A DNA stretch of 7,449 nt. Origin: a virus. Taxonomy: Duplodnaviria; Heunggongvirae; Uroviricota; Caudoviricetes. Position 1 is the stretch's first letter. Every line of letters starts with the position of its first letter. The stretch is taken from IMG/VR virus record IMGVR_UViG_2671180437_000020; one strand, written 5' to 3'. Below are positions 1-6,600 of this stretch, in pieces. The position numbers were made by a program, and so were the translations under genes. The notes under the pieces are model-generated. The model ran no database searches, was not told the origin of the DNA, and saw only the letters and a program-made list of their open reading frames with translations.

Positions 1-171
1 TCAATAAATCCCATCATTGCGATCAACCTCATCCTTAACCATTGATGCGAGCAGTTCTTCCAGTTTCTGCGCTGACAGCTTTACCTGGTGATCTTCAGCA
101 TCTTCCCGGGCTATTGTGGTTCGCGCAGTGGCTGATTTTGCTGAAATCACCACAGGGGGCAGACGGACCAT
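1..171 (-). CDS. hypothetical small protein (56 aa from the ATG at 171..169; the ORF track extends it to 282, 93 aa)
   Basis: Open frame ending with TGA at 3..1. The ATG at 171..169 is preceded on the minus strand by GGAGG with ~10 nt spacing. The longer 93-aa version would start inside the hairpin at 238..271, so the internal start is preferred. I do not recognise the protein. Confidence 0.3.
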   Translation of the reverse strand: MVRLPPVVISAKSATARTTIAREDAEDHQVKLSAQKLEELLASMVKDEVDRNDGIY

Positions 172-237
172 TGAACCATGGCCTCCGGAACAAATAAGGG
201 CAAAAATAACAACCACTATCGAAAGCTCACAAACTAA

Positions 238-271
238 CCGCAGCACGTTCCTGTATACGACGTGTCTGCGG
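238..271 (-). terminator. GC-rich hairpin 14 nt downstream of the tfa-like ORF stop; candidate intrinsic terminator
   Basis: Arms ccgcagcacgt (238..248) and acgtgtctgcgg (260..271) pair with a 1-nt bulge around an 11-nt loop. On the minus strand it is followed by UUAGUUUGUG. It is a diverged copy of the hairpin at 1288..1320. Confidence 0.35.
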
Positions 272-451
272 CATAATCCCAATGATTACTCCCTGACAGG
301 ATTTGCAGGCCACTCAATATCAGGTGCAGTTGATGTATCAACACGATTCAACAATACCCGATATTTATTCCATGCCTCCAGCAACGATCTTTCTTCCTCC
401 GTTGCGATTTCCAGATCTACAGCATCCTGCAGTGGCGCAATATACTCACTG
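238..451. repeat. direct repeat copy 1 (tfa 3' end plus hairpin), diverged copy of 1288..1500
   Basis: By-eye alignment of 238..451 with 1288..1500 gives roughly 85-90% identity, ending at ...ctcactg in both. The encoded C-termini match (…[41 protein letters not shown]…VRE). Confidence 0.7.
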
Positions 452-555
452 AATTCCTGGATGTAGAACTGTGTGGTGACGGTCTTCCAGCCATTCGGCT
501 CCTGCTGTATCGAAGCATACCAGGCTATTTCAATATCGCTATGCTGCGGCAGCAT
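286..555 (-). CDS. tail fiber assembly (Tfa)-like C-terminal domain protein, 89 aa; possibly a remnant
   Basis: The C-terminal ~55 aa are near-identical to the C-terminus of the 194-aa Tfa at 1335..1919, while the N-terminal 34 aa are unrelated. The ATG at 555..553 is preceded on the minus strand by AAGGGG with a 4-nt spacer. Stop is TAA at 288..286. Confidence 0.4.
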
Positions 556-563
556 TTAACCCC

Positions 564-592
564 TTGTAATTCATCGCCATAATTGATTTAAT
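564..592 (+). promoter_or_regulatory. candidate sigma70 promoter for the methyltransferase gene
   Basis: TTGTAA (564..569), 17-bp spacer, TTTAAT (587..592), in the 56-bp AT-rich divergent intergenic region, about 20-30 nt upstream of the ATGs at 612 and 624. Confidence 0.3.
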
Positions 593-611
593 TCACAAAT
601 AAAACTATAAC

Positions 612-1280
612 ATGGTGAAATTAATGAAAAAAAACACAGATGATGGGGCTAAAATTTACACACCACTTACCCTAAAGCTTTATGACTGGTGGGTTTTGGG
701 AGTATCAAATTGGCTTGCATGGGGATGTCCTACAAAGGAACACCTTCTTCCACACTTTCTGGAACATTTAGGTAACAACCATCTGGATATTGGTGTTGGA
801 ACTGGGTTTTACCTTACTCACGTACCTGAGAGTAGTCTGATATCTTTAATGGATTTGAACGAAGCTAGCCTGAACGCGGCATCTACAAGGGCTGGGGAAT
901 CAAAAATTAAACATAAAATTAGCCATGATGTTTTTGAACCTTATCCCGCGGCGTTACATGGTCAATTTGATTCCATTTCCATGTTTTACCTTCTTCACTG
1001 CCTGCCTGGAAATATAACTACAAAAAGCTGTGTAATACGCAATGCGGCGCAGGCCTTAACTGACGATGGAACTCTATACGGAGCCACAATTCTTGGCGAT
1101 GGAGTTGTGCACAATAGCTTCGGTCAAAAACTGATGCGCATTTACAATCAGAAAGGTATCTTTTCAAACACAAAAGATTCCGAAGAAGGCTTAACACATA
1201 TACTCTCAGAGCATTTCGAGAATGTTAAAACCAAGGTTCAAGGTACTGTAGTAATGTTTTCCGCTTCAGGGAAAAAATAG
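612..1280 (+). CDS. class I (Rossmann-fold) SAM-dependent methyltransferase, substrate unknown; 222 aa from ATG 612, or 218 aa from ATG 624
   Basis: Motif I LDIGVGTG is encoded at 783..806. An acidic residue ends the next strand (SLISLMDLNE), followed by HDVFEP and FDSISMFYLLHCLP motifs and LTDDGTLYGATIL, in the usual class I order. The pre-motif segment YDWWVLGVSNWLAWG loosely resembles the UbiE/COQ5-type N-terminal region. GGTGA at 614..618 favours the ATG at 624. The gene is visibly AT-rich compared with its flanks. Confidence 0.65.
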   Translation: MVKLMKKNTDDGAKIYTPLTLKLYDWWVLGVSNWLAWGCPTKEHLLPHFLEHLGNNHLDIGVGTGFYLTHVPESSLISLMDLNEASLNAASTRAGESKIKHKISHDVFEPYPAALHGQFDSISMFYLLHCLPGNITTKSCVIRNAAQALTDDGTLYGATILGDGVVHNSFGQKLMRIYNQKGIFSNTKDSEEGLTHILSEHFENVKTKVQGTVVMFSASGKK

Positions 1281-1287
1281 CATCCAA

Positions 1288-1320
1288 CCGCAGCACGTTC
1301 TTGCTTAAGACGTGCTGCGG
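1288..1320 (-). terminator. perfect 11-bp GC-rich hairpin between the convergent tfa and methyltransferase genes; candidate bidirectional terminator
   Basis: ccgcagcacgt (1288..1298) pairs perfectly with acgtgctgcgg (1310..1320) around an 11-nt loop. It lies 14 nt past the tfa stop and 8 nt past the methyltransferase stop. On the minus strand the U-run (UUGGAUGCUAUUUUUU) is not immediately adjacent to the stem. Confidence 0.4.
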
Positions 1321-1500
1321 CATAATCCCAATGATTACTCCCTGACAGAGTTCGTAGGCCACTCAATATCAGGTGCAGTTGATGTATCAACACGGTTCAG
1401 CAACACCCGATACTTTTTCCAGGCTTCCAGCAATGAGGTTTCTTCCTCCGTTGCAATTTCCAGATCTGCAGCATCCTGAAGCGGCGCAATATGCTCACTG
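1288..1500. repeat. direct repeat copy 2 (tfa 3' end plus hairpin)
   Basis: Matches 238..451; see copy 1. Confidence 0.7.
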
Positions 1501-1919
1501 GCTACCTGCATCAGGTTGTTTTTTGTTTCTTCCGCCTCCCGGATCCGGAACAGTTTTTCTGCTTCCGTATCCTTCACCCAGGCTGTGCCGTTCCACTTCT
1601 GAAACTCCCCTTCCGGAGATAACCAGGTGACATTTTCCGGTAACGGACCGAGTTCAGAAATAAATAACGCGTCCCCTGATGCCACGTCATAAACTGTTTT
1701 ACCCCGATGGTCTTCAACAAGATACCACGATGCATCATCACTGTTGAAAACAGCCACGAAGCCAGCCGGAATATCTGGCGGTGCAATATCGGTACTGTTT
1801 GCTGGCAGACCTGTATGAGGCGGAATATATGCGTCACCTTCACCAATAAATTCATTAGTTCCGGCCAGCAGATTATAAATTTTTATGGTCCGTGCTTGTT
1901 CACTCATTCTGAATGCCAT
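1335..1919 (-). CDS. tfa: tail fiber assembly protein Tfa (lambda Tfa/orf-194 family), 194 aa
   Basis: At 194 aa it is the same length as lambda Tfa and near-identical along its length to that sequence as I recall it ([53 protein letters not shown]...). Its ATG at 1919..1917 overlaps the upstream stf-fragment stop (TAATG). Stop is TAA at 1337..1335. Confidence 0.9.
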
Positions 1920-2902
1920 TATGCAAGCCTCACAATATAGTTAAATGCGATGTTTTTGACGGTGTTTTCCGCGTTACCAGCAGCGTTAACGGTGATGGTG
2001 TGTCCATGTGAACCAATCGCAACCGAGTGCGTATGCGCACCAATACCTACAGTATGTGCGTGTGCACCTGCGCTTGCAGCAGTACCCGATACAGAGTGCG
2101 TATGAGCGCCTGCAGAAGAAGTGTTAACACTGTATTTAGAATAATCAGGTGCTCCACTTCCCGGAGCACCACTGGAACCACCTGAAACAAATGTCATCGA
2201 ATGGGTATGTGCACCGGCTGAAGCAGCCGTACCGCTAACACTATGGGTATGCGCCCCGGTGTTATTCGTGGATTTAGTGCCGTAATCAAACGACGATGTG
2301 GTTTTCGTACCCAAATCCGTACTGGATGCGCTGGCGCTGTGGGTGTGCGATTTAATGCCGTCCTGTTCCTGAGACAATACGGCACGACCACTGGCGGGCT
2401 TGCCCTTAATCGTCCAGCCACGCATATCAGGGATCACGCCTGACGGATAAGCCACTGCAAGTTTCGGGTATGCAGATTTGTCAAAAGTCTGCCCCTGCAT
2501 CAGGGCATAACCAGACGGAACGGTATCTGATGGCCACGGGATTGGTGCACCAACAGGGTAGCTTTCTGGTGGAATATTTTTCGAGGTATAAACTTCTGCC
2601 CAGTCTTCCTCAAAACCATAGCCATCTCTTGAAGAACGGTAGAACAGACCACCATTTCTGTAATGCGCCTTCATCTGCAGGGTCCGGCAACTTCCGACTC
2701 CGGTATAGAAGTTAACCAGAATATAGCTGTCGCCAGAGCGAGTGACATTGTAAGCGCCTGATTCGGCATTCCAGGGAACGCCCCCATCCGCATCGGCATA
2801 CGTATCCGTTGCTCTTCTGGCAAAAGCAGCAACATGCGCAGCGGTTAAAGTGATATCAGTAGAACCATCAAACGAAACACCAGATATTTTTATTGCTGTC
2901 TG
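1919..2902 (-). pseudogene. stf: 3' fragment of a side tail fiber gene (about the last 327 codons), cut at its 5' end by IS1
   Basis: The frame is open from the IS1 junction at 2902 to TAA at 1921..1919. It encodes the His-rich tip (GAHTHS/GAHAHT/GSHGH) and ends ...[22 protein letters not shown], which matches the lambda Stf C-terminus as I recall it. There is no start codon or RBS of its own at the 5' end, and the first Met is at 2674. Confidence 0.8.
2153..2902. repeat. direct repeat copy A of the stf 3' segment (750 bp), flanking IS1
   Basis: Aligns with 3672..4421 at a constant offset of 1519. I count about 13 mismatches by eye (~98% identity), all within 2411..2750. Confidence 0.85.
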
Positions 2903-2957
2903 GGTGATGCTGCCAACTTACTGATTTAGTGTATGATGGTGTTTTTGAGGTGCTCCA

Positions 2958-3233
2958 GTGGCTTCTGTTTCTATCAGCTGTCCCTCCTGTTCAGCTACTG
3001 ACGGGGTGGTGCGTAACGGCAAAAGCACCGCCGGACATCAGCGCTATCTCTGCTCTCACTGCCGTAAAACATGGCAACTGCAGTTCACTTACACCGCTTC
3101 TCAACCCGGTACGCACCAGAAAATCATTGATATGGCCATGAATGGCGTTGGATGCCGGGCAACAGCCCGCATTATGGGCGTTGGCCTCAACACGATTTTA
3201 CGTCACTTAAAAAACTCAGGCCGCAGTCGGTAA
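2958..3233 (+). CDS. insA: IS1 InsA (transposition regulator / N-terminal part of the InsAB' transposase), 91 aa, GTG start
   Basis: [40 protein letters not shown]... is the InsA sequence. The A6C frameshift motif (ttaaaaaactc) near 3205..3215 precedes the insB frame. Confidence 0.9.
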
Positions 3234-3655
3234 CCTCGCGCATACAGCCGGGCAGTGACGTCATCGTCTGCGCGGAAATGGACGAACAGTGGGGCTATGT
3301 CGGGGCTAAATCGTGCCAGCGCTGGCTGTTTTACGCGTATGACAGGCTCCGGAAGACGGTTGTTGCGCACGTATTCGGTGAACGCACGATGGCGACGCTG
3401 GGGCGTCTTATGAGCCTGCTGTCACCCTTTGACGTGGTGATATGGATGACGGATGGCTGGCCGCTGTATGAATCCCGCCTGAAGGGAAAGCTGCACGTAA
3501 TCAGCAAGCGATATACGCAGCGAATTGAGCGGCATAACCTGAATCTGAGGCAGCACCTGGCACGGCTGGGACGGAAGTCGCTGTCGTTCTCAAAATCGGT
3601 GGAGCTGCATGACAAAGTCATCGGGCATTATCTGAACATAAAACACTATCAATAA
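3152..3655 (+). CDS. insB: IS1 InsB (transposase catalytic part, expressed as InsAB' by -1 frameshift), 167-aa frame
   Basis: [25 protein letters not shown]...HYLNIKHYQ matches InsB. It differs from the K-12 IS1 InsB I recall at two positions (AKSCQRW and YDRLRK). Confidence 0.9.
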
Positions 3656-3665
3656 GTTGGAGTCA

Positions 3666-6600
3666 TTACCATCCACTTCCCGGAGCACCACTGGAACCAC
3701 CTGAAACAAATGTCATCGAATGGGTATGTGCACCGGCTGAAGCAGCCGTACCGCTAACACTATGGGTATGCGCCCCGGTGTTATTCGTGGATTTAGTGCC
3801 GTAATCAAACGACGATGTGGTTTTCGTACCCAAATCCGTACTGGATGCGCTGGCGCTGTGGGTGTGCGATTTAATGCCGTCCTGTTCCTGAGACAATACG
3901 GCACGACCACTGGCGGGCTTGCCCTTAATCATCCAGCCACGCATATCAGGGATCACGCCTGACGGATAAGCAGCTGCAAGTTTCGGGTAAGCAGATTTGT
4001 CAAAAGTCTGCCCCTGCATCAGGGCATAACCAGACGGAACGGTATCTGATGGCCACGGGATTGGTGCGCCGACTGGGTAGCTTTCTGGTGGAAGATTTTT
4101 CGAGGTATAAACTTCTGCCCAGTCTTCCTCAAAACCATAACCGTCTCTTGAAGAACGGTAGAACAGACCACCATTTCTGTAATGCGCCTTCATCTGCAAG
4201 GTCCGGCAACTTCCGACTCCGGTATAGAAGTTAACCAGAATATAGCTGTCGCCAGAGCGGGTGACATTATAAGCGCCTGATTCGGCATTCCAGGGAACGC
4301 CCCCATCCGCATCGGCATACGTATCCGTTGCTCTTCTGGCAAAAGCAGCAACATGCGCAGCGGTTAAAGTGATATCAGTAGAACCATCAAACGAAACACC
4401 AGATATTTTTATTGCTGTCTGAAGTTTCGTAGCTGTATCAGAATTTCCCTTAATCCCCTTAGGCGAATTAAGTGGTGTATTGATCGTCACTTCACCTGTT
4501 GCGTTATTTACAGCAAATGGTCGAAGACCGTTCCAGCCACCGTACTGGTCGCCTTTATCAGTCATGAGCAAGTAAGTATTTGCTCCATCATTTCGCCATA
4601 TGACACCGTAATCGCCTGCAATCATCCTTAACGCGTTCTGACTACGGACAATAACTTCATCATTAGCGTAAATCTTATTCCCGCTAATATCTGACTTACT
4701 CAAAACAGGATACGAACTATAAAATCCATTACCTTGTTTAAAATCTAAAATTAAATTTACAGCAACTGATTCAGAATAAGGATCAGTTGCACCAAATTTA
4801 TAAGTTGTTTCAGCAACAACATAATCAGAAGCAGGTGCAGTAACGGAGAGTCCTTCTTCTAAAAAAACCTCTACGGGAAATGCCCCACCTTCTATATAGA
4901 ATACGCTGTCTACGGTATCGCCTTTATTACTCATCAGAATGGAATGAATAGCGCGTTCCGATGATGAATAAGCCCAGAACATACCACAGGCATAGCTACC
5001 CCGGTCCGTCCAGCCGCCTGCGCAAACAAAACCATTAAACTCACAGTTATTCATTCTGTGATTAGCTGTGCGACTTGGCGTTGAAATGACAACGCGGGAT
5101 GCCCGATGGCTGTCATTCCTTTTTATCACTAACGGATAATATTTACCTTCCTGGACACCCGCCGGGGCATTTACCACAACGTATCGCATCCCCTTTTTCT
5201 GATCCACTTCACCTTTGCTGTAAACATTAATGTTACTCAGGAAGCGGTCCTTGTCGGGAATATCAGCACCGTTCTGGTCTTTCTGCAGACGTTTCTCTGC
5301 ATTGTCATAGGCTGCTTTTACTGCCTTTGGCGTTGCCGCCAGCGTTTCAGACGTGCTGTTGGTCGCACTGCTGAGCTGTACTACCCCCTTTTTCGTCGTG
5401 CTCGCATCCTCAAGCGCCACGGCGGATGCAATATCCTCTGCACGTTTTGCCGCTGTCTCAGCGCGCGTTGCCGCGGATTCCGCCGTACTTTTGCTCTGTG
5501 CTGCCGCCGTCGCACTGCCAGCTGCCTCTGTCGCCTTCGTGGATGCTGTCGTGGCGCTGCCCTTCGCTGCTGACGCCTGTCTGGTCGCCTCATCTTTTGA
5601 AGCAGACGCCGATGATGCCGATGACGCCGCCGAACTGGCTGACGATGCGGCAGCCGTTTTTGAGGATTCTGCACGGGTTTCCGACGCTTTCGCGTTCGTT
5701 TCGGATGTCTTCGCTGCGGAAGCTGACCTCGCTGCTGCGCTGGCCTGTTCAGTGGCTTCGCCAGCCTTCGTTGTGGCTGTTGAAGCAGACGATGCGGCAC
5801 TTTCTGCCGACTTTCCGGCAGCGGTGGCACTGGCTGAGGCCTGCCCGGCACTTGTTGATGCGGCACTGGCAGATGATGCAGCCGCTGTTTTTGAGCCTGC
5901 CGCAGCTGAGGCACTCTGTCCCGCTGCCGTTTCAGAAGACCTGGCGTTCGTCTCGGACGTTTTTGCCGCCTTCGCGGAATTTCCTGCCGCCGTTGCCGAG
6001 GAAGCGGCACTACTGGCGCTTGATGATGCGTTCGTTTCTGATGATTTCGCTGCCTCTTTTGAGGCCGCCGCATCCCGGGCTGAGGTGGCAGCTTCTGACG
6101 CCTTTGTGGTCGCTGCGGATGCAGAAGTGGCTGCAGATTTTTGTGACGCTGCCGCATTCGTTTCTGACGTTTTCGCCGCACCGGCACTGGTAGCTGCCGC
6201 GCTTTTTGAGGACTCTGCAGCGGCAGCACTTTTTGAGGCTTCAGTGGCCTTTGTTGATGCCGTTCCTGCGCTGGAAGACGCTGACTGAGCCGACGTCGCG
6301 GCCTGCCCGGCTGATGTGCTGGCTGCGCGTGCTGAGCCTGCAGCATCAGTCGCATGGGTTGCCGCCTCACGGGCTGATGTGCTGGCATCACTGGCTGACT
6401 TCTTCGCGGCTGCCGTGTTCTGTGCCACCGCGGACGCGTTACGCGCCACCTCTTCCACCATCAGTTCAAAACGGCGCAGTGCCTCAGGACGGGCATCATC
6501 CTCCGTCATGGCACCGAGAAAATCATTCAGCGTACCGGGTCGGGAATCTTCATACACGGTGATGGTCCCGGCATGTGACGGCGGGAATCCCTCCACCAAC

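Follow-up and report, generated by a model that had tools for sequence, protein, structure and literature searches.

The methyltransferase gene in the stretch of viral DNA analysed here (the window, 7,449 nt in full) lies between two direct copies of the 3' end of a tail fibre assembly gene (tfa), and the arrangement is probably an old recombination scar in a cargo ('moron') slot that closely follows the side-tail-fibre genes of lambda-like prophages. Far from being a local curiosity, the locus is the tfaD-ybcY-tfaX module of lambda-like (DLP12-type) prophages, named in E. coli K-12; it is already annotated and does not constitute a new kind of element. The relevant features are as follows.

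1..189, minus strand: remnant of a DUF4376-domain gene, a pseudogene with an internal stop (from RefSeq annotation of homologous loci and translation)
236..462, minus strand: left direct repeat, with a hairpin (238–271), a 14-nt spacer to the stop codon (272–285) and the last ~58 tfa codons (286–462)
286..555, minus strand: chimeric ORF of 89 aa, the same as K-12 tfaX; codons 1–29 from a PHROG-3893 gene (gene X), codons ~36–89 encoding a Tfa C-terminal domain
451..468, minus strand: junction zone of the illegitimate X::tfa fusion; X homology stops at 469, and clear tfa homology runs from 450–462 or below
469..555, minus strand: 5' segment derived from gene X, codons 1–29, in the same frame as native X in Ayreon and Citrobacter (codon-by-codon alignment)
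556..623, no strand: spacer that separates the divergently oriented chimeric ORF and methyltransferase, with a sigma-70-like TTGATT-17-TATAAC at 583–611 (plus strand)
612..1280, plus strand: class I SAM-dependent methyltransferase of the ybcY family (PHROG 2132), an AT-rich cargo gene
1286..1511, minus strand: right direct repeat, with a hairpin (1288–1320) and the 3' end of the intact 194-aa tfa
1335..1919, minus strand: intact tail fibre assembly gene tfa (194 aa, PF02413), annotated as tail fiber assembly protein in homologous loci

Alignment of the direct repeats (236–462 and 1286–1511) revealed 199 identical columns among 227 (87.7%) and a single 1-nt indel. The repeat finder returned them as a 197-nt pair (266–462 and 1315–1511, 88% identity) and a 29-nt pair (236–264 and 1286–1314, 86% identity); the indel between the two pairs falls inside the hairpin, in agreement with the MAFFT alignment. 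The segments initially proposed as repeats, 238–451 and 1288–1500, are thus real and lie within these limits, and the similarity extends well beyond the hairpin over all 227 columns. Each copy consists of a GC-rich hairpin and the final ~58 tfa codons (~55 had been proposed), and the match of the left copy to K-12 tfaD (blastn, E = 1.6e-80) is far beyond chance. As originally stated, the right copy belongs to a full 194-aa tfa: PF02413 (Caudo_TAP/Tfa) scores 148.4 bits (cut-off 22.1) over profile positions 1–129, which represents the complete two-domain Tfa architecture, and a 3' fragment of stf lies directly upstream, abutting at 1919. The left ORF scores 88.3 bits against the same cut-off, on profile positions 75–130 of 131 only. 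It does not have the two-domain architecture, its residues 1–29 belonging to phrog_3893, and it sits after the methyltransferase, not next to stf as is characteristic of Tfa. The dN/dS between the left and right tfa ends is 0.12 with a dS of 0.44, the differences being mostly synonymous, so the two ends appear to be diverged alleles that were brought together rather than a duplication in place.

On the tfa-sense strand, both repeat hairpins fold at −29 to −30 kcal/mol (z = −4.1 for the left and −4.4 for the right), and none of 200 shuffles folded as stably. The lambda hairpin shows a compensatory change from C-G to A-T. A canonical U-tract is absent from both hairpins and the terminator scan called neither; by analogy, the most likely role of the two is to terminate the late operon. 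A second copy of the same hairpin, without tfa, is found in the lambda b region.

Two Rfam families overlap the repeats. The covariance model of RF02111 (IS009) matches the right tfa 3' region at 1576–1378 with 225 bits, above the gathering score of 117, and the chimeric ORF at 532–329 with 112.5 bits, slightly under it. Both matches sit within reading frames on the coding strand; membership is therefore uninformative on RNA function, and IS009 probably represents a fragment of tfa coding sequence rather than an sRNA. The right hairpin matches the 3'-terminal stem-loop of RF02799 (CssrB, a Shigella sRNA family) at 32/32 positions. These last 32 positions are common to both, whereas the body of CssrB is not shared. 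In the literature, CssrB and IS009 were found only as mentions in lists.

The left junction is an illegitimate in-frame fusion in which a PHROG-3893 gene, at codon ~29–35, is joined to a tfa allele at codon ~140. Within the 89-aa ORF, phrog_3893 matches residues 3–37 (E = 3.3e-7) and tail-fibre-assembly PHROGs match residues 29–87. Only positions 2–36 of the 79 in phrog_3893 are covered, and the window therefore carries a 5' fragment of gene X alone; the proteins of HK225, Midgardsormr38 and Kp4882-3 match positions 1–78/79. By tblastn, full-length X genes of 79–99 aa were detected in HK225 (gp28), Erwinia phage Midgardsormr38 (gp33) and Klebsiella Kp4882-3, together with a partial copy on a Citrobacter contig, cut by the contig end. 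The N-terminal 40 residues as a query retrieved short E. coli/Shigella fragments and the Citrobacter X type, but nothing long. The initial annotation was right in describing a fusion, but the 34 codons it called unrelated are not so, since the first 29–35 codons are the 5' end of a PHROG-3893 gene. The Shine-Dalgarno sequence AAGGGG is present four bases upstream of the ATG at 555. Because the native PHROG-3893 gene of phage Ayreon has the same Shine-Dalgarno sequence and ATG, these signals look inherited from that gene rather than evolved for an ORF encoding the Tfa C-domain.

Phage Ayreon also indicates what preceded the fusion. It retains the tfa 3' end and hairpin, ~40 nt from the end of the methyltransferase and the same spacer and Shine-Dalgarno sequence, and then continues into native X, which suggests that a pre-fusion neighbourhood of methyltransferase and X existed. 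A synthetic junction query for an intact methyltransferase beside native full-length X found none in 5,426 E. coli genomes at ≥80% coverage, and tblastn of X proteins against IMG/VR loci gave 0 true matches in 80, a single hit (locus L059) being spurious. With no intact pair of this kind, we infer the ancestor solely from the Ayreon-type, methyltransferase-deleted derivative.

Between the repeats, the methyltransferase appears to be a self-contained cargo gene with a putative promoter of its own; its true start is probably the ATG at 624. The methyltransferase core is present in 3,798 of 5,426 complete E. coli genomes (about 70%) and is ≥98% identical across the species. Two features of morons are found here, namely a deviant base composition (GC 40.8% vs 47–53% in the flanking tfa and stf) and presence or absence between collinear relatives, as the gene is missing in lambda and in 20 E. 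coli genomes whose flanks are the same. Hexamers identical to those in the spacer, TTGATT-17-TATAAC, have been reported for K-12 ybcY, and in K-12 RpoD holoenzyme and H-NS bind the ybcY/tfaX spacer (PMC3946193). A generic promoter scan returned no more sites than expected by chance. In the sense of the methyltransferase, a hairpin begins 8 nt past the stop codon (−25 kcal/mol, z = −5.1); a U-tract was not found after it and the terminator scan did not call it. An IS1 at 2904–3670 is unrelated to the methyltransferase cassette.

The AlphaFold model of the methyltransferase (pLDDT 90.5) has many equally good neighbours among Rossmann-fold methyltransferases, and its predicted fold resembles those of small-molecule and lipid methyltransferases. 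The best structural neighbour is phosphatidylethanolamine N-methyltransferase (TM 0.64–0.69, 15–16% identity), which is too little for a substrate to be assigned. A sequence search of the PDB gave weak generic matches only. PADLOC-DB (E ≤ 0.01) returned nothing for the methyltransferase, the 89-aa ORF or HK225 gp28, and the reading as a defence system was rejected on this ground. Four homologous loci with 60–64% identity (tblastn) were found on Enterobacter chromosomal contigs, and the sole locus with annotated neighbours adjoins dcp/ydfG. In none of the four is tfa nearby, and they carry no information on the scar.

In the DLP12 prophage of K-12, tfaD-ybcY-tfaX (MG1655 b0561, b0562 and b0563) has the same order and orientation as in the window and is collinear with positions 309–1773 at 96.5% identity. 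K-12 TfaX and the 89-aa ORF agree at all of the first 61 residues, and the hexamers upstream of ybcY are the same. In K-12, tfaD lacks its 5' end, tfaX has a stop at codon 62 and ybcY is a pseudogene, whereas in the window the methyltransferase and tfa are intact and the chimera is full-length. The homology of K-12 tfaX to the left repeat switches to a different tfa allele below window position ~381, and appY/ompT come next after tfaX, where the window has the hairpin and the DUF4376 remnant. The whole filled arrangement occurs in 1,113 of 5,426 complete E. coli genomes. In the literature on ybcY/tfaX, exchangeable effector loci, morons near tail fibres and lambda late terminators, this structure was not found described.

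The initial annotation held that recombination between the repeats would precisely delete the methyltransferase, and predicted an empty site in which tfa is followed directly by the 1..171 ORF with one hairpin. Such an arrangement, with the 1..189 DUF4376 pseudogene as the left flank common to filled and empty alleles, is present in 20 of 5,426 E. coli genomes. Nine of the empty alleles were retrieved, and at least 7 of these are at the same chromosomal locus. At the diagnostic sites, all 8 empty alleles examined have a left-type hairpin and a right-type tfa body, and the switch at 264–343 falls in each of them within the longest identical blocks of the repeats, a zone of perfectly identical stretches of 34 and 39 nt. 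EFF60 (empty) and JCC-EE 7 (filled) share the same Tfa accession, WP_000885577.1. Lambda, which is without the cassette, shows a near-identical pattern, with one hairpin site of the right type and a few body sites that differ, and for this reason the empty alleles may never have carried the cassette. The diagnostic sites fit both histories, and the empty alleles could be deletions or never-filled ancestors. Evo1 (empty) and JCC-EE 7 (filled) have neighbouring accessions and were considered as a laboratory parent and offspring, but their prophage content differs and the pair was rejected.

The boundaries of the cassette vary between phages. Among 80 IMG/VR loci, homology to the window on the left ends at 381, 331, 308–309 or 214, or runs through, and on the right it ends at 1320, 1429, 1455–1463 or inside the tfa body; left and right end-points reassort among the loci. 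Because several end-points reassort on both flanks, the conserved tfa 3' end appears to act as a portable homology patch and a recurrent crossover zone. The suggested module exchange by recombination within conserved tfa 3' sequence is therefore borne out as an exchange footprint with recurrent crossovers, but it does not extend to the left junction, which is an illegitimate in-frame PHROG-3893/tfa fusion.

Taken together, the following history is proposed. The ancestral phage would have carried stf, tfa and the hairpin, followed by the convergent cargo methyltransferase ybcY, itself transcribed divergently from the small gene X. A single illegitimate in-frame join would then have linked X at codon ~29–35 to a second tfa allele at codon ~140; this allele, by then already diverged, would have brought its own hairpin and downstream DNA; the join would have created the 89-aa chimera tfaX and, as a by-product, left two ~227-bp copies of the tfa 3' end and hairpin in direct orientation around the methyltransferase. 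Later homologous crossovers in the tfa 3' end on either side could move the cassette between phage backgrounds, and could precisely excise or restore it. The tfa 3' end would be alike in otherwise different phages because it encodes the conserved C-terminal helical domain; Tfa proteins are described, in a passage of PMC9608196 that cites North et al. 2019, as pairing an N-terminal domain that is variable and binds the fibre with a C-terminal helical domain that is conserved.

The proposed course resembles known modes of phage evolution and departs from them in some respects. In the model of Juhala and Hendrix, mosaic joints of lambdoid phages reportedly arise by illegitimate recombination and selection, with homologous exchange in conserved segments. 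The window likewise has one novel illegitimate joint and signs of many homologous exchanges in conserved flanks, and, as in morons, an AT-rich cargo gene with a putative promoter of its own between late-operon genes and the prophage end. The joint here differs in being in frame and in leaving a 227-bp direct repeat, through which ordinary homologous recombination could add or remove the cassette; morons do not have this property in general. Tail fibre and tfa genes are exchanged horizontally among unrelated phages (lambda Stf/Tfa, P2 H/G, Mu S/U, P1 S/U), and a conserved tfa 3' end common to otherwise different fibre modules is seen here as well. Whereas the classical exchange swaps functional pairs, the second tfa end in the window would be a non-functional remnant that supplies homology.

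The main alternative concerns the chimera, which might be a selected functional small protein, perhaps a factor with the chaperone domain alone that assists or poisons side-tail-fibre trimerisation, the repeat being incidental. The in-frame fusion with a good Shine-Dalgarno sequence and ATG, the binding of RNA polymerase at the K-12 spacer and a PHROG of its own (2341; 88 positions, E = 4e-61) would agree with this, and the ORF is intact (88, 89 or 101 aa) in about 66 of 77 IMG/VR loci with a readable start and in all examined chromosomal copies from the prophage integrated at ompW. The predominance of intact copies and the low dN/dS of the Tfa part against functional tfa also fit continued selection. 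That ratio, however, is explained if the divergence dates from a time when the donor tfa still worked, and the copies of the chimera, being ~98–100% identical to one another, are too recent for a test of selection. The ORF, moreover, does not behave as a conserved independent gene: it is truncated or frameshifted in K-12 (61 aa, early stop), in phage 2G7b (66 aa, 7-bp frameshift) and in about 10 of 80 viral loci, 28-, 66- and 68-aa variants also occur, and in PhiR26/Turner its C-terminus is replaced (101 aa). It is missing from the 20 empty alleles, the Ayreon type and locus L113, PGAP annotates the region as a pseudogene, the fibre-binding N-terminal domain of Tfa is absent, and the −10 hexamer proposed for K-12 tfaX overlaps the Shine-Dalgarno sequence and ATG. 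We therefore consider a functional chimera unlikely and infer that the ORF is most likely a dispensable by-product. Still less likely is a combined reading, in which the tfa 3' end and hairpin are a selected, reusable docking sequence for cargo swaps and the chimera is expressed and acts on side-tail-fibre assembly. The reassorting boundaries, the tfa-less hairpin of the lambda b region and the mostly intact chimeras keep it alive; under it, the chimera could be a dominant-negative trimerisation domain against superinfecting stf+ phages, for which prophage-encoded tail-assembly interference (Tai) is a loose analogue (PMC11364771).

Direct repeats around an AT-rich foreign gene look at first sight like the trace of an insertion, and they might have arisen in place as a target-site or tandem duplication when a mobile cassette delivered the methyltransferase. 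This is highly improbable: the mostly synonymous divergence of the copies already contradicts it, the left copy is joined to part of another gene, and its diagnostic substitutions are constant across unrelated phage backgrounds. Furthermore, no transposase, integrase or terminal inverted repeat was found around the methyltransferase (556–1285), and a repeat of 227 bp with 87.7% identity far exceeds any target duplication by transposition. Equally hard to credit is a decayed invertible host-range segment (of the Mu G, P1 C, e14 P or p15B Min type) in which an alternative tfa formerly lay. In some relatives (Turner, HK225 gp29 and locus L113), DNA invertases and a gix-like site do lie beside the cassette, and in L113 the sequence TTATCTAAAACCTCGGTTTACAGGAA adjoins window position 570. 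The two tfa ends, however, are direct and not inverted, no alternative stf C-terminus is present between them, and the left copy is joined to gene X rather than to a tail-fibre segment; the window has no invertase ORF and gave no match to a degenerate gix/cix/pix pattern with 2 mismatches allowed. The recombination scar remains the preferred reading.

The finding matters chiefly for annotation and bookkeeping and will not surprise phage genomicists. The region of the small ORF is variously labelled 'protein TfaX', a tail fiber assembly pseudogene or 'hypothetical protein', and the same element underlies the Rfam 'sRNA' family IS009. The locus may serve as a worked example of how phage mosaics form, in which one illegitimate in-frame joint would have given rise to a chimeric ORF, and conserved chaperone-domain DNA on both sides would allow a cargo gene to move or be deleted through ordinary homologous recombination. 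The highly conserved cargo methyltransferase is a more interesting part of this locus than the scar beside it.

The window holds the right end of a lambda-like prophage, with the tail genes on the minus strand. ORFs were listed, scanned against Pfam and NCBIfam, and compared with annotated genomes:

7449-6850, minus strand: lom, outer membrane protein
6791-3666 and 2674-1919, minus strand: stf, side tail fibre, interrupted by IS1 at 2904-3670
1919-1335, minus strand: tfa, 194 aa, intact
1288-1320: GC-rich inverted repeat (right hairpin)
612-1280, plus strand: class I SAM-dependent methyltransferase, convergent with tfa
555-286, minus strand: chimeric ORF, 89 aa
238-271: GC-rich inverted repeat (left hairpin)
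189 to below 1: DUF4376 pseudogene remnant

E. coli 042 is one of many strains in which the prophage adjoins, at this end, a truncated ompW beside yciE/F/G and trpA.

The initial annotation had placed the methyltransferase between direct repeats of the tfa 3' end plus hairpin. This was confirmed, as the left (236-462) and right copy (1286-1511) are identical in 199 of 227 aligned columns. The repeat finder reported two blocks, 266-462 versus 1315-1511 (197 nt, 88%) and 236-264 versus 1286-1314 (29 nt, 86%), offset by one base because of an extra T in the left hairpin. Each copy consists of the GC-rich inverted repeat, a 14-nt spacer to the stop codon, and the stop with the last ~58 tfa codons. 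The 89-aa ORF and 194-aa Tfa proteins have 50 of 63 C-terminal residues in common. Over 54 shared codons, the copies show 19 nucleotide but only 6 amino acid differences (dN 0.054, dS 0.438, ratio 0.12); given this low ratio, most of the divergence arose while both copies were working tfa genes. A target-site or tandem duplication as origin of the repeats is opposed by this mainly synonymous divergence, and the defining features of an invertible segment or a transposon were absent. Judged by their codons, the copies are two alleles and not a fresh duplication, and their divergence fits a single illegitimate crossover of two phages or two fibre modules, each ending in tfa and hairpin.

The object in the window is a module already named in E. 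coli K-12, tfaD-ybcY-tfaX, and a very common one. Window 309-1773 is collinear with tfaX (b0563), ybcY (b0562, a pseudogene in K-12), and tfaD (b0561) in DLP12 of MG1655, at 96.5% identity. Among 5,426 complete E. coli genomes, the methyltransferase core (556-1285) was found at no less than 98% identity in 3,798, with up to four copies in one genome, and the whole arrangement of window 1-2000 in 1,113. Functional temperate phages also carry the module (2G7b, ev243, the PhiR26/29/30 series, Turner, Kati), as do E. albertii and, adjoining ipaH, Shigella/EIEC. Contigs from MAGs binned as Bacillus sp., Planococcaceae, and Segatella copri (loci L013, L020, L025) carry the cassette at 97-99% protein identity, almost certainly through bin contamination.

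The left ORF had been described as starting with 34 unrelated codons, which did not hold. With the first 40 residues as query, no long protein was retrieved, only short E. coli/Shigella fragments and a Citrobacter protein that continues differently. A tblastn search with the Citrobacter sequence recovered a phage family of 79-99-aa proteins, here gene X, including HK225 gp28, Klebsiella Kp4882-3, and Erwinia phage Midgardsormr38 gp33 (mislabelled 'DNA polymerase V'). Against PHROGs, full-length matches to phrog_3893 were obtained for the HK225, Erwinia, and Klebsiella proteins; in the 89-aa ORF, residues 3-37 match phrog_3893 (E = 3.3e-7) and residues 29-87 tail-fibre-assembly families. At the codon level, the ORF tracks native X to codon 29 (window 469) and tfa from codon ~32-36 (462-450), which places the joint within 451-468. 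Native X in phage Ayreon is preceded by the same Shine-Dalgarno sequence and spacer as the chimeric ORF. In HK225 and Citrobacter, X directly follows the tail-fibre chaperone, divergent from dinI, in the slot held by the methyltransferase in the window. Ayreon and some E. coli chromosomes carry the tfa 3' end, hairpin, last ~40 nt of the methyltransferase, spacer, and X with its native continuation, a layout that reads as a methyltransferase-deleted derivative of the pre-fusion arrangement.

The 89-aa ORF is intact in most copies. K-12 TfaX comprises its first 61 residues, identical; the 2G7b version has 66 aa through a 7-bp deletion, that of PhiR26/Turner 101 aa with a foreign tail, and about 10 of 80 viral loci have 28-68 aa. 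PGAP labels the ORF a pseudogene. We rate it a dispensable by-product and consider a real function improbable.

LexA-box-like palindromes (e.g., TACTGTATATACATACAGT) occur upstream of the PHROG-3893 gene in Kp4882-3 (L029, ~2975-2995) and, in HK225 (L027, ~3960-3980) and Citrobacter (L026, ~1750-1770), in the interval separating this gene from the divergent dinI. In Midgardsormr38, a UmuD-like gene comes after gene X. Members of the gene X family may be under SOS control; in the window, the chimeric ORF has no LexA-like box upstream.

The positions where homology to the repeat copies ends were compared across loci.

Homology end-points of the two copies (window coordinates)
Left, ~381: K-12
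Left, 331: 2G7b, Turner, PhiR26
Left, 308-309: several IMG/VR loci and phage PhiR68_2
Left, 214: Shigella/EIEC type
Left, running through: this window, 042, E. albertii
Right, 1320 (hairpin only): Turner, Shigella
Right, 1429 or 1455-1463 (short tfa remnant): 2G7b
Right, within or through the tfa body: this window

In Shigella, the left copy carries a different tfa allele from ~309 up to the hairpin. Across 80 IMG/VR prophage loci, left end-points are combined with right ones in many ways, which shows that the two flanks were exchanged independently. By these end-points, crossovers have recurred in the tfa 3' end on both sides. According to PMC9608196, citing North et al. (2019), the N-terminal fibre-binding domain of Tfa chaperones is variable and the C-terminal helical domain conserved; this makes the last ~60 codons alike in otherwise different phages, a plausible reason for the recurrent crossovers.

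In E. coli ECMA0423 and Shigella flexneri SFBU1023 (L012, L014, L015), the right side stops at the hairpin (1320), and beyond it come an LRR fragment, a transposase of the IS4 family, and a gene with an IpaH E3-ligase domain; their left copy is a mosaic with substitutions typical of the right copy and a different extreme 3' end. In L113 (IMG/VR UViG 2695420708_000013), cassette homology stops at 570 and tfaX is absent; a gix-like site (TTATCTAAAACCTCGGTTTACAGGAA) and an apparent invertase gene lie directly beside this end (L113 ~2900-2946).

Empty sites, predicted as tfa, one hairpin, and the DUF4376 remnant, do exist. Joining window 1-330 to 1380-2000 gave an artificial deletion product that matched several genomes in a single piece, and a stricter junction query retrieved exactly 20 of the 5,426 genomes. 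Of nine empties fetched, at least seven lie at the ompW/trp locus and one elsewhere beside uspF and ompN. At 27 diagnostic sites, defined in six filled genomes as telling left from right copy, each of the eight empties analysed combines a left-type hairpin with a right-type tfa body, switching between 264 and 343, an interval that holds the two longest blocks of perfect identity (34 and 39 nt). EFF60 is a chimera with one clean switch, and its Tfa shares a RefSeq accession with that of a filled genome. Deletion via homologous recombination would give this pattern. However, lambda lacks the cassette and has almost this pattern as well, which makes the never-filled state equally possible for the empties.

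The methyltransferase behaves as cargo, with a GC content of 40.8% versus 47-53% in the flanks. Enterobacterales widely carry homologues (55-70% identity); of four Enterobacter loci, none has tfa nearby, and the one with annotated neighbours adjoins dcp/ydfG. A PADLOC search gave no match. Its confident AlphaFold model (pLDDT 90.5) has methyltransferases of small molecules and lipids as PDB neighbours, with a phosphatidylethanolamine N-methyltransferase as the best (TM 0.64-0.69), a likeness that may serve as a lead, not an assignment. For K-12, Shimada et al. (PMC3946193) reported that RpoD holoenzyme and H-NS bind in the ybcY/tfaX spacer and gave TTGATT-17-TATAAC as the ybcY hexamers, which are present at window 583-611. 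The annotated start, ATG 612, abuts the -10 hexamer TATAAC (606-611). Because this hexamer ends at 611, and the PHROG 2132 profile starts at residue 5 and Enterobacter homologues at residues 4-5, the true start is probably ATG 624 (218 aa).

The hairpins are probably terminators closing the late operon. They fold much more stably than shuffled controls, with z-scores of -4.1 to -5.1 in three of four strand/copy combinations and -2.8 in the fourth. Their structure is conserved: in lambda, a C-G pair has become A-T, a compensatory change. The hairpins are without a canonical U-tract, and neither was called by the terminator scan. The right hairpin (1289-1320, minus strand) is identical, at 32 of 32 positions, to the terminal stem-loop that closes Rfam RF02799, CssrB (chromosome-encoded Shigella sRNA B), which suggests that it terminates a detectable transcript in Shigella; the body of CssrB is absent from the window. 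Lambda carries a second hairpin, of the common left type (CCGCAGACACGTCGTATGCAGGAACGTGCTGCGG), at 24162-24195 (L002 1418-1451) in the b region between ea47 and ea31. It has no adjoining tfa and is separate from the diverged hairpin just after orf-194 (22573-22606), making the hairpin a recurring element in its own right.

Upstream in the fibre module, IS1 (InsA/InsB ORFs, NCBIfam transpos_IS1) is flanked by two copies of a 750-nt stf 3' segment (2153-2902 versus 3672-4421; 98.3% identity, 13 mismatches, 0 gaps). With IS1 between them, stf is split in two, a C-terminal ORF of 251 aa and one of 1041 aa that runs into IS1. An assembly artefact or fresh duplication is disfavoured by the mismatches, which suggest that stf genes of two different prophages were joined via IS1-IS1 recombination, so the window halves may derive from different prophages. 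Within stf, window 5350-6400 (minus strand) contains many imperfect direct repeats spaced at multiples of 21 nt (families D2-D8), encoding an Ala/Ser/Thr-rich stretch in the N-terminal half of the fibre.

Rfam RF02111 'IS009', a candidate sRNA family, scored 225 bits at 1378-1576 (minus strand; gathering score 117) in tfa 3' coding sequence and 112.5 bits on the chimeric ORF (329-532, minus strand). It seems to represent a fragment of tfa coding sequence, not an RNA gene. No paper discussing the structure of the module was found. Likewise, we found written nowhere that tfaX is an X::Tfa chimera, that natural empty alleles with the predicted junction exist, that the flank boundaries reassort, or that IS009 is essentially this tfa coding segment. 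The module belongs to a textbook kind, the moron in a lambdoid-phage mosaic joint; these four points are useful annotation corrections, and the biology is unsurprising.
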